Below are positions 7,088 through 17,469 of a stretch of DNA of 64,000 nucleotides, one piece after another (the first letter of the stretch is position 1; each line of letters starts with the position of its first letter). Source of the stretch: Patescibacteria group bacterium. Lineage in GTDB: Bacteria > Patescibacteriota > Gracilibacteria > UBA4473. The position numbers and the translations under genes were made by a program. Where the stretch lies: positions 256,001 through 320,000 of the forward strand of contig CBFIAK010000001.1 in NCBI GenBank assembly GCA_965660445.1. The letters run 5' to 3'. The notes under the pieces are model-generated. The model saw only the letters and a list, made by a program, of their open reading frames with translations. It did no database searches and was not told the origin of the DNA.

Positions 7088-7969
7088 ATGCAGGTGATTC
7101 CAGATATAGAAATAGTTTTACAAGAAGCTTTACAGCCATTTTATAGCAGTGATTTACTCGCACGATCTTTTTTAAGAATAGGATTGCCTCGCTATATTGC
7201 CTATAAAATAGCACACAATATTTGGGAAACGTTAGATAATGAAGGGAAAGATGAACAAAAACTCTACAATAGGGCTTGTTCTCTTGTAAAAAAGGATTAT
7301 CCGACATTATTACCAGCGTATAAAAAATGGGCACGAATAATGAAACAAAAGAAACCGTTTATTATTTTAGTTGCAGGTGGAACAGGAATTGGCACTTCAA
7401 CATTAGCGGTTCGATTGGCATGGCTTATGGAAATTAATCATATTGTTTCAACCGATTCAGTTCGTGAAATAGTGCGGAGATTTTTGCCAGCTAAAATAGC
7501 ACCTGCATTAAGTGTTTCTACTTATCAAACCGCGACAATGGTGAAAGGGGTTCGATCTTCGAAAGATGCGCTTATTTTTGGGTTTCTTTCTCAGTCTCAA
7601 AAGGTTCTTTATGGAATAGAATCAGTTATTCAAAGATCGATCAAGGAACAAGAAGATATTATTATAGAAGGTATTCATTTAGTGCCAGGAGAAATGGATT
7701 TTATAAAAAAATATAAGAAAAAAGCTCATATTATTGAAATTATGCTTGATGTGCATAAGGAGAATGATCATAAACAACATTTTTTAACTCGTCATCTACA
7801 AAATGCAAACCGAATACAAAAACGATATTTAAATCATTTTAAAGAAATTAGAATTATTCAAAATTTTTTAGTACAAAGGGCTCATGTCAATAATATTTGT
7901 GTTATTGAGAACTATAACTTAAAAAAAGTAGAAAAAAAGATACTTGATCATATCTATTCACAATTATGA
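7088..7969 (+). CDS. pgk2: 2-phosphoglycerate kinase (archaeal type)
   Basis: ATP-cone-like N-terminus (PFYSSDLLARSF), PFIILVAGGTGIGTST P-loop, STDSVREIVR, IEGIHLVP, H...F..R, RYL.HF.EIR.IQ; ATGA overlap with cpgS. Confidence 0.85.
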   Translation: MQVIPDIEIVLQEALQPFYSSDLLARSFLRIGLPRYIAYKIAHNIWETLDNEGKDEQKLYNRACSLVKKDYPTLLPAYKKWARIMKQKKPFIILVAGGTGIGTSTLAVRLAWLMEINHIVSTDSVREIVRRFLPAKIAPALSVSTYQTATMVKGVRSSKDALIFGFLSQSQKVLYGIESVIQRSIKEQEDIIIEGIHLVPGEMDFIKKYKKKAHIIEIMLDVHKENDHKQHFLTRHLQNANRIQKRYLNHFKEIRIIQNFLVQRAHVNNICVIENYNLKKVEKKILDHIYSQL

Positions 7970-9321
7970 GTCTTAAATTAAAAAAATCTATCGCTTGTTT
8001 GGTAGATGGCGAACATTATTTACCAAACACAAAAGCCACACTCGAAACTCTTTCTCAAGAATATGATATACAATATATTATCTTTATTGGAGGCACGGAA
8101 AAGATTGGAAATACAGAAGATATACAAGCTGGGTTTACGTATCCTGTTTATTTTGCTTATACATCTCATGGGCCAGATGTAAATATAATGAAAGGGATTC
8201 TAGAGTCGCATAAAGTGGATATGGTCTTTGATCTTTCAGATGAACCAGTTGTCAATTATAAAAAAAGATTTGAAATGGCTTGTGTTATTCTTTTTTGTGG
8301 AATGATCTACAAAGGGTCTGATTTTGAGTTTTTACCCCTTCAATTTGATGAGATTCTCACAAAACCTTCACTTGCTATTTGGGGAACAGGAAAGCGTATT
8401 GGGAAAACAGCCTTTGGAGGATTCGTTGGTCGTCTCCTCAAAAATAGAAACAAAAAACCAGCAATTGTTACATTGAGTCGAGGCGGTCCTCCTGAGCCAA
8501 TGTTAGTAAGAGGTGATGAAATAAATATTGATGTAGATTATCTTCTTTCTATTCATAAACAAGGATTGCATGCATCATCTGATTGCTTTGAAGATGCATT
8601 GATGGCAAGAATACCAACGTTTGGATGTCGGCGTTGTGGTGGCGGTATGACCGGTAAGGCCGTTATTTCTTTCGCCCAAACAGGCGCAATGATGGCAGAA
8701 GAGTCCTCATTTGTGGAGACGGTTATTCTTGAAGGAAGTGGAGCCAGTATACCAGAAATTAAAACAGATGGAGTTATCCTCCTTATGGATATAACACAAT
8801 CAACAGAAATATTAGAGTCTTACTTGACCCCTCTGAAAATACTATATGCCGATATAGTTGTATTAACAATGTGTGAAGATTTCTTCGTGTCTGATCGAAA
8901 GATTGATCGTATTATACGACATATTAAACGTATAAATAAGAAAGTTCGTATAGCCACAACTGTATTAAGACCGCTTCCATTGAAATCAATAAAAGGAAAA
9001 AAAGTGTTTTGGGCAACAACGGCACCCTCACACGTTGTTTCTTTTTTGAAACACTATATAGAAGATGTTTATGAGTGTTCTGTGGTAGCATCGAGCTCGC
9101 ATTTGTCTCATCAAGAAAAACTGAGAAAAGATATGCAGAACAGTCATGAGTTTGAATGTGTCCTCACAGAGTTAAAAGCAAGTGCTGTATCTGTCGTTGC
9201 AAAAGAAGTAGAAAACAAAGAAATTGTTTTTCTTGATAATGAGTTCCATATTGTTGATAGGGGTGGTGATATTAAAGATTTGGAATCAGCTATAGTGAAC
9301 TGTCTAGAGAAAAAAGCATAA
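7966..9321 (+). CDS. cpgS: Cyclic 2,3-diphosphoglycerate synthetase
   Basis: LVDGEHYLP, GGTEKI, DLSDEPVV, GTGKRIGKTA, RGGPPEP, HASSD.FEDA, GCRRCGGG, EGSGASIP, ELKA motifs. Confidence 0.9.
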   Translation: MSLKLKKSIACLVDGEHYLPNTKATLETLSQEYDIQYIIFIGGTEKIGNTEDIQAGFTYPVYFAYTSHGPDVNIMKGILESHKVDMVFDLSDEPVVNYKKRFEMACVILFCGMIYKGSDFEFLPLQFDEILTKPSLAIWGTGKRIGKTAFGGFVGRLLKNRNKKPAIVTLSRGGPPEPMLVRGDEINIDVDYLLSIHKQGLHASSDCFEDALMARIPTFGCRRCGGGMTGKAVISFAQTGAMMAEESSFVETVILEGSGASIPEIKTDGVILLMDITQSTEILESYLTPLKILYADIVVLTMCEDFFVSDRKIDRIIRHIKRINKKVRIATTVLRPLPLKSIKGKKVFWATTAPSHVVSFLKHYIEDVYECSVVASSSHLSHQEKLRKDMQNSHEFECVLTELKASAVSVVAKEVENKEIVFLDNEFHIVDRGGDIKDLESAIVNCLEKKA

Positions 9322-9770
9322 AAAAATAGCGTGAGTGTTCGAGGTCTCCGCAATAAATATGGAGTCGAGCATTCGCGCTATTTCGAGTGGGTATCCTTGA
9401 CCAAAGGATGAGTCTCTTGCCTTGCTTGGGTAATCTTCTTTCTCGATAAATCGAGATCCTGCGTTACCGGTCAGAGTTCTTGGGTGTAGAGAACGAATGA
9501 CGCAAGCGTCAGAAGAAGTTTTCTACGAACTGTGTATTTTGGTAAAATACCTCAATTGAATGAGGGCATTTCTTATGGGGGTCTGGTTATAAGAAACGAC
9601 ATTGCAAAGCGGGGAGAACCGAGATTTCGAGACAAATGCCTGCAAAAAATCAAAGTATATATTGTGTGTTGGACAGGTTGATCGAATCCTCGATCCTCAC
9701 CGCGTTTAAGTACTGAAAGAAGTACTTGAGAAGCCGAAGTTGTGAAAGAAAGAAAACTAATTGAATTTTT
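9322..9770. ncRNA. Candidate large structured non-coding RNA, family and strand unresolved
   Basis: ~440 nt with no convincing ORF and at least 8 consecutive hairpins; G-U wobbles favour the + strand, while the promoter, CUUG loop and U-tract favour the - strand. Confidence 0.5.
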
Positions 9771-9776
9771 CATATC

Positions 9777-9805
9777 ATCTTACGCGCCAAGTGCTTCTTT
9801 GTCAA
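9777..9805 (-). promoter_or_regulatory. sigma70-type promoter pointing into the structured region
   Basis: TTGACA-17 nt-TAAGAT on the minus strand. Confidence 0.6.
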
Positions 9806-9839
9806 AAAATATATATTGCGAAAGTTTTTTATTGTTTTC

Positions 9840-10646
9840 TTATATATCTTGTAATTCTTGTTTTTCTGTTTGTGATTGGTTTTGTGTGGCAATGCTTTTC
9901 TTGTGAAGATGTCCGAAAATAAAGAGAAAAATAAGGGCAACAAGTAATAATATTTGATTTACACGTAGAAAATCAAATATTATAAGTGTTGGATTCCCTT
10001 TAAAAAACTCGAGAAAGAGTTCGAATCCGAAAAAGAGAATAGCAAACCGAATAGCGAGTTTTCCTGAATAAGTGGTAAGAATAGTGTGTGAACGAGAGAT
10101 CCAAAATAAAAGCCATGCATGAAATAAAAATGCATAAATGGTTACGGGATGAATAGGGTTTAAAATATCAACAGTAAAGGTTTCGTATTGAATACCCCAC
10201 CAAAGACTGGTTTCTTTTCCGTAAACATGCCCTGTGAGGAAACCCGCAATATCCATAATAAGAACAGCGACTAAAAAAGGTTTCACTAATGTGTCGATCC
10301 ATCGCAGGGCATCTATTTTTCGAGTTCGAAGATCAAATATCATAAGCGTTAAGAATCCGATAAGAAAGCCAAGAAAATGGAATCCTTCATCCCAAAACGC
10401 AAAGAATGCGAGTTGTCCATTGCGTTCTAAAAGTCCAGAAAGATGTATAAGAAAACTAAAAAGACGTCCGCTGGCAAACCCAACCAAAATCCATCGCCAG
10501 AAGAAATGAAGAAATGTATCAAGTGAGTAATTTTCTTTCTTGAGAGCTTTGTAATATAAAGAGGCCCCAACGATGAAAGCTATAGCTACAAAAACTCCAT
10601 AAACCTTTATTGCAAAGTACCCGAATAACATTTGTGAAAAATTCAT
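9840..10646 (-). CDS. Prolipoprotein diacylglyceryl transferase (Lgt)-like membrane protein, degenerate motifs
   Basis: IKVYG..., SGRL, G.VYGKET..WGI, IHPVTIY, FLEFFKG, NQ pattern; canonical HGG and GR.GNF.N.E motifs are altered. Confidence 0.7.
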   Translation of the reverse strand: MNFSQMLFGYFAIKVYGVFVAIAFIVGASLYYKALKKENYSLDTFLHFFWRWILVGFASGRLFSFLIHLSGLLERNGQLAFFAFWDEGFHFLGFLIGFLTLMIFDLRTRKIDALRWIDTLVKPFLVAVLIMDIAGFLTGHVYGKETSLWWGIQYETFTVDILNPIHPVTIYAFLFHAWLLFWISRSHTILTTYSGKLAIRFAILFFGFELFLEFFKGNPTLIIFDFLRVNQILLLVALIFLFIFGHLHKKSIATQNQSQTEKQELQDI

Positions 10647-14315: not shown

Positions 14316-17238
<2,923 letters not shown>

Positions 17239-17350
17239 TATCAGTTTTTGTTTATCTCTTAGGTGGGTAAACTTCAAAAAATAGATGTACGCGGTATAAT
17301 ACAATGAATTTTCTTTTTTCCGATTATCAGAACGAATATTAAAAAAGTTC

Positions 17351-17469
17351 TGTGTTGACATCTGTAGCGAAAGGGGTACACCTGATCCCATTCCGAACTC
17401 AGAAGTTAAGTCTTTCAGCGCCGATGATACTTAGGGATAGCCTTGGGAAAGTAGGTCGATGTCAACACA
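17351..17469 (+). rRNA. rrf: 5S rRNA
   Basis: CACCTGATCCCATTCCGAACTCAGAAGTTAAG...CGCCGATGATAC...GAAAGTAGG; terminal stem TGTGTTGACATC/GATGTCAACACA. Confidence 0.95.

Follow-up and report, generated by a model that had tools for sequence, protein, structure and literature searches.

The DNA analysed here, a 64,000-nucleotide (nt) stretch of a Patescibacteria group bacterium genome (hereafter the window), contains a hairpin-dense spacer flanked by two convergent genes, an open reading frame (ORF) on the plus strand (7966-9321) and lgt on the minus strand (9840-10646). We conclude with good confidence that positions 9805-9320 of this spacer, read on the minus strand, form a separate gene for a structured noncoding RNA (ncRNA) of ~450 nt, that the gene is the shorter and more diverged of two paralogues, and that the RNA family to which both belong is not in Rfam 15. 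Within one class of small-genome bacteria of the candidate phyla radiation (CPR) type, the family is found chiefly in two GTDB families, often with two copies per genome. A preliminary description of the spacer, made from its letters alone, had offered a new large ncRNA as one of three explanations, and it is this option that a conserved, covarying RNA family without an Rfam match bears out.

The family was recovered from a second, diverged copy of the element 173 kb away in the same genome (contig C1 438839-438983), which a BLAST comparison covering 41 related genomes aligned to window 9413-9555 with 80% identity (E 2.9e-27). A second block common to both copies lies upstream of this stretch. 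The second copy (hereafter the long copy) extends over ~438.56-439.07 kb of contig C1 and is intergenic, between a methyltransferase gene and an AI-2E-type transporter gene, and a weak match in another genome (G021) is its clear homologue. A search with the core motifs of the RNA returned loci from most genomes of the same GTDB family, including 25 loci with both core motifs. Five false matches inside genes (L014, L015, L025, L026, and L028) were dropped before alignment; locus L022, which is cut by a contig end, was left out, as were L027 from alignment A3 and L032 and L206 from alignment A4. Two covariance models were built, R1 from 18 sequences of the 5' domain of the long form (alignment A3) and R2 from 10 sequences of the second GTDB family (f8) only.

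R1 matches 36 of the 43 genomes of the window's GTDB family, nine of them twice, and gives weak matches in 8 of the 15 f8 genomes of a 151-genome sample of the class. R2 matches all 15 sampled f8 genomes, 12 of them twice, as well as one genome each of two further families (f17 and f28); the remaining families sampled in the class gave no match. Outside the class, none of the 143 genomes of a 151-genome phylum sample was matched. Searched against the whole of this genome, R2 returns the window copy only, over the whole model (35 bits, E 4.8e-6); searched against the window and the long-copy locus alone, it returns both copies (35.0 and 30.6 bits). Both core motifs at the family spacing occur together in one record among the matches listed, titled 'uncultured Candidatus Peribacteria bacterium' (L122), and the first core motif is also seen in records titled Peribacteria, Peregrinibacteria, or Gracilibacteria; the matches listed are for the most part due to chance. 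The lineage appears to be a Peribacteria/Peregrinibacteria-type branch of the CPR.

The core of the RNA consists of a closing helix (P1), a hairpin with a conserved G-U pair (hairpin A), a further, long hairpin, and a pseudoknot of the H type that includes an A-rich strand, and the consensus fold is a multi-branch (four-way) junction with the pseudoknot (Table 1). Members of the family share a P1 motif in which C(Y)GCUYUGC pairs with AGCAAGGC, the two strands lying 150-435 nt apart in the loci inspected, a hairpin A that directly follows GAUG or AAUG, a pseudoknot just 5' of the P1 3' strand whose loop GGU.. pairs with ..ACC, and, in the RNA sense, an own promoter, a boxA-like leader, and a terminal hairpin with a U-run. 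All of these are found in the window copy. Every helix listed in the preliminary description is present and has its place in this architecture, and its claim of dense structure holds for both strands, each of which folds better than all of 100 shuffled sequences: the plus strand reaches -149.4 kcal/mol (z -3.77) and the minus strand -126.1 kcal/mol (z -3.83).

Covariation among collected homologues, a line of enquiry that had been proposed for the element, supports the fold. Among 27 f8 copies, 91.5% of the alignment cells in a six-helix structure that includes the pseudoknot are paired, compared with 84.0% in shuffles and 40-49% in slid controls, and changes on both sides are seen at 23 of 38 pairs, compared with an average of 11.0 in shuffles; none of 500 shuffles reaches the observed values. 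In the 5' domain of the long form (A3, 18 sequences), 20 of 30 predicted pairs change on both sides. At the level of single helices, P1 (helix 1 of the second family) has 4 of 10 pairs that change on both sides, and hairpin A has many compensatory changes in A3 (columns 23-33 with 47-57) and changes on both sides at 6 of 8 pairs in the second family (helix 2), while the G-U pair at its base is kept in 16 of 18 sequences of A3 and in 16 of 27 of the second family. The pseudoknot is conserved across 38 sequences from both GTDB families: its first two inner pairs are G-C in 38/38, the third is U-A in 32 and A-U in 5, and the fourth is A-U in 21, C-G in 4, U-A in 4, and G-C in 3. Pseudoknot stem 2 is 96.3% paired in the 27 f8 sequences, with U-A in 13 and C-G in 12 at one position; stem 1 is 68.7% paired in A4, a value that is understated because the stem is out of register between the two GTDB families. 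Around this core the hairpins vary. Homologues have a long hairpin at the position of the 5' hairpin domain that has a GGAGAG/CUCUCC base and differs in sequence, long hairpins of other sequences take the place of hairpin S6 (helices 3 and 4 of the second family), and a hairpin with a loop similar to that of the 3' hairpin at 9409-9393 is seen in homologues. In the window copy, an ACCCAAG junction joins S6 to the pseudoknot.

The preliminary description found the strand signals of the spacer conflicting and left the strand open. Family-wide signals settle the question, placing the RNA on the minus strand. Of 41 family loci, 29 have a promoter-like site upstream when read in the RNA sense and 9 when read in the opposite sense; for a boxA-like motif of the GTTCTTTSAMA type, the corresponding counts are 30 and 1. 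The paired cells of alignment A3 contain 49 G-U and 13 A-C combinations, RNAalifold gives -18.3 kcal/mol for the RNA sense and -14.8 kcal/mol for the reverse complement, which lacks the long-range helices, and both R1 and R2 match the minus strand only. Within the window copy, the minus strand has G-U pairs at conserved core positions (U-G in P1, G-U at the base of hairpin A, and U-G in pseudoknot stem 1), and two minus-strand features named in the preliminary description, a G(CUUG)C tetraloop and a terminal U-tract, are indeed there, the tetraloop at the apex of S6 and the U-tract at 9326-9320.

Several observations weigh against this reading of the element. First, as the preliminary description had correctly remarked, the imperfect pairs of the window copy read G-U on the plus strand, which leaves A-C on the minus strand; direct reading finds six of them, of which three belong to the terminator stem, two to the top of hairpin A, and one to S6. 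The plus strand of the element also folds 23 kcal/mol better than the minus strand, in agreement with the G-U pairs lying on the plus strand. In the family, a terminal hairpin with a U-run is seen in the RNA sense at 41 of 41 loci but in the opposite sense at 31 of 41, so that this test does not discriminate between the strands, and the pseudoknot cells contain 11 A-C and 8 G-U combinations. Second, the near-consensus minus-strand promoter noted earlier was recovered by the scan (TTGACA-17-TAAGAT, 10/12 consensus matches), but a single such site does not exceed the number expected from shuffles (mean 1.7), and transcription of the minus strand, the ends of the transcript, and its abundance are predictions from sequence. 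The boxA label of the leader motif is an analogy, as the same motif follows several messenger RNA (mRNA) promoters, and in the second family no motif match lies just upstream of the one 23S gene found in genome G158, and no 16S gene was found in G158 or G136. Third, the structures were derived in part from the sequences used for the pair counts, kinship among the sequences inflates the shuffle tests, and with filters off R2 gives a different, weaker alignment of the window copy (9453-9618, 13.9 bits). Finally, the domain with the best-conserved sequences in this GTDB family is missing from the window copy, which R1 scores at 36 bits (E 1e-7), compared with 125.4 bits for the long copy.

The better folding of the plus strand and its six G-U pairs would fit a functional RNA on that strand, either a structured 3' untranslated region (UTR) and terminator region of an operon of 2PGK and ORF 7966-9321 or a plus-strand small RNA (sRNA), and so would the position of the first hairpin (9324-9383), which on that strand stands directly 3' of the ORF's stop codon (9319-9321). 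We regard a plus-strand RNA as highly improbable. The promoters, leader motifs, and G-U pairs of the family, together with both covariance models, point to the other strand, the homologues do not lie downstream of related genes, and the first hairpin alone need serve the plus-strand gene. This hairpin probably terminates both the minus-strand RNA and the convergent ORF.

The absence of a domain from the window copy raises the question of whether the copy is a pseudogene, a duplicate of the long RNA gene that has lost its function and is decaying. In the window's GTDB family, the long form carries an extra branched domain between hairpin A and the hairpins that follow, with two covarying helices (ACCACAAAACG/CGUUUUGUGGU and CGAGAGG/CCUCUCG) and two conserved stretches (GACGACUU and AAGCCGCC). 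The window copy has a 5-bp CCUCA/UGAGG hairpin in its place, and the spacing of the two core motifs is 194 nt in the window copy and 267 nt in the long copy. Besides the loss of these sequences and the low R1 score, decay would be in keeping with the longer branches of the 'b' copies in a tree of the 27 f8 copies, in which these copies partly group across genera; the tree is poorly resolved, with 12 of 24 inner branches open.

What the window copy retains makes a pseudogene improbable. The promoter (10/12), leader motif, P1, hairpin A, pseudoknot, and 3' hairpins are intact and have undergone compensatory change: 6 of the 29 pairs common to the window and long copies differ on both sides and are still paired, including all five of the 3' hairpin, and direct reading shows the stem of hairpin A rebuilt with different pairs. 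Forms that lack the extra domain altogether are normal in the second family (15/15 genomes), and R2 scores the window copy above the long copy (35.0 and 30.6 bits). Second copies without the inner part of the extra domain also occur in genomes G006 and G007, the latter having a long copy in tandem with it; tandem pairs of the RNA are seen on contig C55 of G007, where the downstream copy is the one without the inner extra domain, and on contig C10 of G011. Since the window copy keeps everything but the extra domain, and since the pairing of one conservative with one diverged paralogue looks like a recurrent or old feature, the window copy is probably a working short isoform. Long-range pairing of the 5' motif with the extra domain (GUCG/CGAC) was considered and dropped, as its variable base shows no covariation by eye.

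The surroundings of the RNA genes bear on what the RNA could regulate. Flanking ORFs of the 25 loci differ between genomes, and no protein partner or conserved neighbour emerged from them; nor was linkage with pgk2-cpgS, for which a check had been suggested, seen at any of these loci. A riboswitch or cis-regulatory leader was rejected because both copies in this genome are convergent with the next gene and because the downstream genes of the 25 loci vary in strand and kind. The differing neighbours argue against a leader, and no tie to the cyclic 2,3-diphosphoglycerate (cDPG) operon was seen. Regulation in cis could also take the form of an antisense RNA, or a sense/antisense pair, that acts on the neighbouring cDPG genes, as the preliminary description had envisaged, or on lgt. 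The RNA is convergent with ORF 7966-9321 and has a hairpin in common with it, and it lies directly downstream of lgt on the same strand (lgt ends at 9840), but it ends at ~9320, at the stop codon, and overlaps no coding sequence. Family neighbours vary by genome, and the second copy and the homologues stand among unrelated genes, the long copy between those for a methyltransferase and an AI-2E-type transporter. The sense/antisense proposal for the cDPG operon is not upheld by these findings, and we give cis-regulation of either set of neighbours very little credence.

The presence of two copies per genome in varied contexts, and of tandem copies in G007 and G011, would also be expected of a part of a mobile element, such as a retron-like template for single-stranded DNA (ssDNA), a transposon-guide RNA, or a phage or plasmid RNA. 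Against this, no reverse transcriptase or transposase stood out in the flanking ORFs of the 25 loci (with Pfam or NCBIfam searches only for the ORFs around the window element, at the long-copy locus L004, and in the G144 interval), and no match was found in 50,697 phage or 72,556 plasmid records. Sequence similarity follows genus membership, as in four near-identical loci of genus g2. Five genomes of the second family, belonging to three genera (G144, G136, G158, G090, and G127), carry their two copies in convergent orientation at a spacing of 27-29 kb, and the interval between the copies of G144 (contig C2 244635-272737) contains ordinary genes: gyrA, ruvA, hrcA, a pfkB-type kinase, PGI, and two transfer RNAs (tRNAs). 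A mobile-element origin is the explanation to which we assign the least probability. A retron msr-msd or other reverse-transcribed template was rejected in its own right, no reverse transcriptase being present among the ORFs that flank the window element. For the template for structured ssDNA that had been put forward speculatively, we found nothing in favour; the element has its own promoter, leader, and terminator and no counterpart in the phage and plasmid collections.

Comparison with known RNA classes gave no identification. At gathering thresholds, the only Rfam 15 matches in the whole window are to 23S, 5S, and three tRNAs. With E values up to 10, window 9200-9950 gives six matches, all far below gathering (the best 21.7 bits against a threshold of 70), and the homologous loci yield chance-level matches only, both at the gathering threshold (L002-L004) and at E values up to 10 or 1 (three loci). 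Models of known large ncRNAs (OLE, GOLLD, ROOL, HEARO, raiA, and others) have no match in the window, in L002-L004, or in L196. The Rfam scan therefore gives no confident match to a known family, and the earlier failure to match the element to RNase P, transfer-messenger RNA (tmRNA), or signal recognition particle (SRP) RNA stands, the models for all three being blank on it.

These universal RNAs nevertheless call for individual consideration, as neither SRP RNA nor 6S RNA was detected in the genome and the element could in principle be an extremely diverged version of one of them or of a second RNase P-like RNA. RNase P RNA was rejected, as the models RF00010 and RF00011 do not match the element at E values up to 10 and a genuine RNase P RNA lies elsewhere. 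That RNA, at contig C2 32783-33097 (L005 1300-1825), scores 36.5 and 54.8 bits against a gathering threshold of 100, and it has a ~207-nt insertion in one hairpin and intact P4 signatures. For tmRNA (RF00023), the genome's own gene is at contig C1 176141-176558 (105.2 bits), and the element has no match. SRP RNA was not found with the small and large models (RF00169 and RF01854) in this genome, which is rated 100% complete, or in any of the 43 family genomes. Searches with SRP_SPB and SRP54 found no SRP54-type GTPase (Ffh or FtsY) and no SRP M domain in this genome, and PF00448 gave weak, partial matches to the P-loop end in 8 of 41 relatives only. Because the lineage is without Ffh or FtsY, a diverged SRP RNA was dropped, this genome and its 41 relatives having no SRP54-type GTPase or M domain for such an RNA to bind. 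A published account describes SRP subunits as absent from many CPR bacteria (PMC8080830). For 6S RNA (RF00013), no match was found in this genome at E values up to 0.1.

A universal RNA in disguise would draw some support from a resemblance, judged by eye, between ACCC..AGCAAGGC and a conserved stretch of RNase P RNA, and from the paired 6S RNAs of some bacteria. The hairpin inserted in the pseudoknot, which might mimic SRP domain IV, is absent from many members of the family, however, the true RNase P RNA with its signature P4 sequences is found elsewhere, a four-way junction with a pseudoknot is unlike the 6S rod and bubble, and no Rfam model matches even at E values up to 10. We consider this explanation very improbable. 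The RNase P likeness is one of general type: both RNAs are of a similar size class and combine a conserved, pseudoknot-containing core with peripheral helices that vary, and a ...CCC..GCAAGG... stretch of the RF00010 consensus resembles by eye a stretch of the window RNA, which lacks the P4 signatures GAAAGUCCG and ACAGAAC.CGGCUUA of the genome's real RNase P RNA (C2). 6S RNA is a long irregular rod with a central bubble, and it can come in pairs, such as 6S-1 and 6S-2 of Bacillus. Like these, the window family has genes of the kind typical of abundant, stable RNAs, each with a promoter and terminator of its own, and it often comprises two diverged paralogues per genome; unlike them, it has a four-way junction and a pseudoknot at its centre, exceeds them two- to threefold in length, and is not matched by RF00013.

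The closest parallels in general organization are OLE, GOLLD, ROOL, and the raiA motif RNA, which share with the window family a stand-alone gene of several hundred nt, a multi-helix covarying fold in which peripheral hairpins vary around a conserved core, restriction to particular lineages, and the lack of coding potential. They differ from it in that no Rfam 15 sequence or structure model matches the family, which is confined, as sampled, to one CPR-type class, has a boxA-like leader, and commonly occurs as two diverged paralogues. According to a cryo-electron microscopy study, GOLLD, ROOL, and OLE form RNA-only assemblies (10.1101/2024.12.08.627333). We regard the family as a new class among the 'large orphan structured' RNAs, with the window element as a short paralogue within it. 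No description of such an RNA was found in the open-access literature or in Rfam 15, and one paper, in a search of its terms, mentions Rfam for ribosomal RNA (rRNA) calling only (PMC4736985).

In the proposed working of the element, the RNA would be transcribed from its own sigma-70-type promoter, with a start near 9770, through a boxA-like leader, as rRNA is, and would end at a hairpin and U-tract that also serve the convergent plus-strand gene. With lower confidence, the product would be a stable folded RNA that acts in trans, as a component of a ribonucleoprotein (RNP) or as an RNA-only machine. Its working centre may be the invariant junction and pseudoknot core, with the variable hairpins, and in the long form the extra domain, at the periphery. 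A stable, trans-acting RNA is suggested by the consensus-like promoter, the rRNA-like leader motif, the GC hairpin of the second family (f8), and the combination of an invariant core with a variable periphery. By analogy, such features are hallmarks of rRNA, RNase P RNA, OLE, GOLLD, and ROOL, and not of base-pairing sRNAs or cis-regulators. If the identity of the element as a separate ncRNA gene is accepted, we lean toward a stable folded RNA in which the core of junction and pseudoknot would either bind a partner or build an assembly. Our second choice, which we hold to be unlikely, is a regulator that sequesters a protein in the manner of 6S RNA. Equally tentative is the hypothesis of an undescribed class of large housekeeping RNA of Peribacteria/Peregrinibacteria-type CPR bacteria that would be synthesized like rRNA, from a strong promoter and with a leader of the boxB/boxA type. 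Two paralogues would be maintained, of which one is conservative and the other evolves fast or is shortened, and the invariant core of four-way junction and pseudoknot would be catalytic or would nucleate an RNA-only or RNP assembly for a job done by proteins elsewhere.

New large, intricately folded bacterial RNAs are rare, and RNase P, tmRNA, group I and II introns, OLE, GOLLD, and ROOL are ribozymes, RNP cores, or unexpected RNA-only assemblies. The RNA described here is conserved in two GTDB families or more. Their lineage is uncultured and genome-reduced, and at a genome size of ~1 Mb nearly every retained gene is likely to matter; two copies of the RNA are kept, and rRNA-type signals are apparent. 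Its core (second family, ~165 nt; window copy, ~200 nt) is a sequence-defined target small enough for in vitro work without culturing, and the family provides a new marker gene for the annotation of such genomes. In the window itself, the conflicting strand signals are settled, and the element proves to be nothing specific to the neighbouring cDPG genes.

The leader of the RNA relates it to the rRNA genes of the same genome. Like rRNA operon leaders, the window RNA begins with a consensus-like sigma-70 promoter followed by a motif of the GTTCTTTSAMA type, and GTTCTTTGATAA, similar to the leader motif, lies between the promoter and the 23S gene of the window. The product is not 16S, 23S, or 5S rRNA, which are complete elsewhere, and the boxA-like motif is also found after mRNA promoters. 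In E. coli rrn leaders, boxB precedes boxA; in the second family, by our own reading, a GC hairpin precedes the boxA-like motif. By analogy, the motif might have a role in antitermination. The rRNA genes of the genome are split, with 23S-5S in the window (14317-17467) and 16S 128 kb away (contig C1 142344-143829), each with its own TTGACA-type promoter and boxA-like motif. A GTTCTTTGAAA-type motif is also found a few bases after the -10 box of several protein-gene promoters (C1 794202(+), 793819(-), 670307(-), and 26755(+)), which indicates that the motif is not restricted to stable-RNA genes. Some products of these genes start, by eye, with a stretch like a signal peptide or membrane segment.

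A second link to rRNA is a shared hairpin, which the preliminary description had recognized in the element and in this 23S rRNA and which is confirmed by a 14-nt match at 23S positions 132-145 and an exact match of 10 nt at 1207-1216. The long copy carries a 17-nt hairpin, AUCCCGAUUUAUCGGGA (L004 1599-1615), that is identical to positions 132-148 of 23S (window 14317-17238). The AUCCCGAUUUAUCGGGA hairpin recurs twice more in 23S, at ~1206-1217 and ~2809-2825, and the window copy has a one-pair variant of it at 9456-9441. The sharing possibly reflects a common ligand or a favoured stable hairpin. An RNA antisense to rRNA was rejected, as blastn searches with the two copies against 16S, 23S, and 5S returned only the shared hairpin, in the same sense, and no complementarity of note.

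Table 1. Features of the window copy, in 5' to 3' order on the minus strand (window coordinates)
Feature	Position	Strand	Basis
Sigma-70-type promoter	TTGACA 9805-9800, 17-nt spacer, TAAGAT 9782-9777	-	Scan, 10/12 consensus matches
BoxA-like leader motif UUUCUUUCACAAC	9751-9739	-	Direct reading and family counts
Small hairpin AAGUACU-UCUUUC-AGUACUU (TTAAGTACT/AGTACTTGA), between leader motif and 5' domain	9727-9708	-	Sequence, fold
5' long hairpin domain GCGGUGAGGAUCGAG ... CUCGGUUCUCCCCGC, includes GATCGA/TCGATC	9703-9609	-	Minus-strand fold
Stretch aligned over the full length of R2	9618-9411	-	35.0 bits, E 3.3e-7
P1 5' strand GCUUUGC, closes the core, followed by AAUG	9610-9604	-	Pairs with GCAAGGC 9425-9419; aligned by R2
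Hairpin A UCGUUUCUUAU ... AUAAGAAAUG (TTTCTTATGG/TTATAAGAAA), conserved G-U at base	9599-9567	-	Aligned by R1 and R2
Small hairpin CCUCA/UGAGG, at the site of the ~90-nt extra branched domain of the long form	9565-9550	-	Comparison with long copy
Small hairpin GUAUUUU/AAAAUAC, common to long copy	9550-9534	-	Comparison with long copy
Hairpin S6 GUAGAAAAC ... GUUCUCUAC (GTAGAGAAC/GTTTTCTAC), apex UGACG-CUUG-CGUCA	9526-9486	-	Sequence, fold
H-type pseudoknot, whole	9476-9429	-	Family covariation
Pseudoknot stem 1, UCUG/CAGG	9475-9472 with 9461-9458	-	Direct reading
Pseudoknot stem 2, loop GGUAA with UUACC (GGTAAT/GTTACC)	9468-9464 with 9433-9429	-	Direct reading
Variable insert hairpin TCTCGA/TCGAGA inside pseudoknot, then A-rich strand	9456-9441	-	Direct reading
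P1 3' strand GCAAGGC	9425-9419	-	Pairs with 9610-9604
3' hairpin AUCCUU-UGGUCA-AAGGAU	9409-9393	-	Sequence; pairs kept relative to long copy
Terminator hairpin AAATAGCG.../...CGCTATTT	9383-9324	-	Sequence, fold
U-tract after terminator hairpin	9326-9320	-	Sequence

Around the window element, the flanking ORFs encode ThrRS, 2PGK, an unassigned protein, Lgt, a kinase-like protein, and an S1-domain protein. Within the element itself, a minus-strand ORF of 66 amino acids (9573-9773) starts 3 nt after the -10 box and spans the 5' hairpin and P1; it has no Pfam match and no counterpart seen by eye in the long copy, and a coding role was rejected as the ORF overlaps covarying helices and its Pfam search is blank. 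ORF 7966-9321 (451 amino acids), the 'cpgS' of the preliminary description, has no Pfam or NCBIfam match, and the ORF upstream of it is a 2-phosphoglycerate kinase homologue by NCBIfam (E 4.5e-71, below the curated cut-off). Window 7088-9321 carries archaeal-type cDPG genes in a bacterium, the cpgS label being the putative assignment made in the preliminary description.

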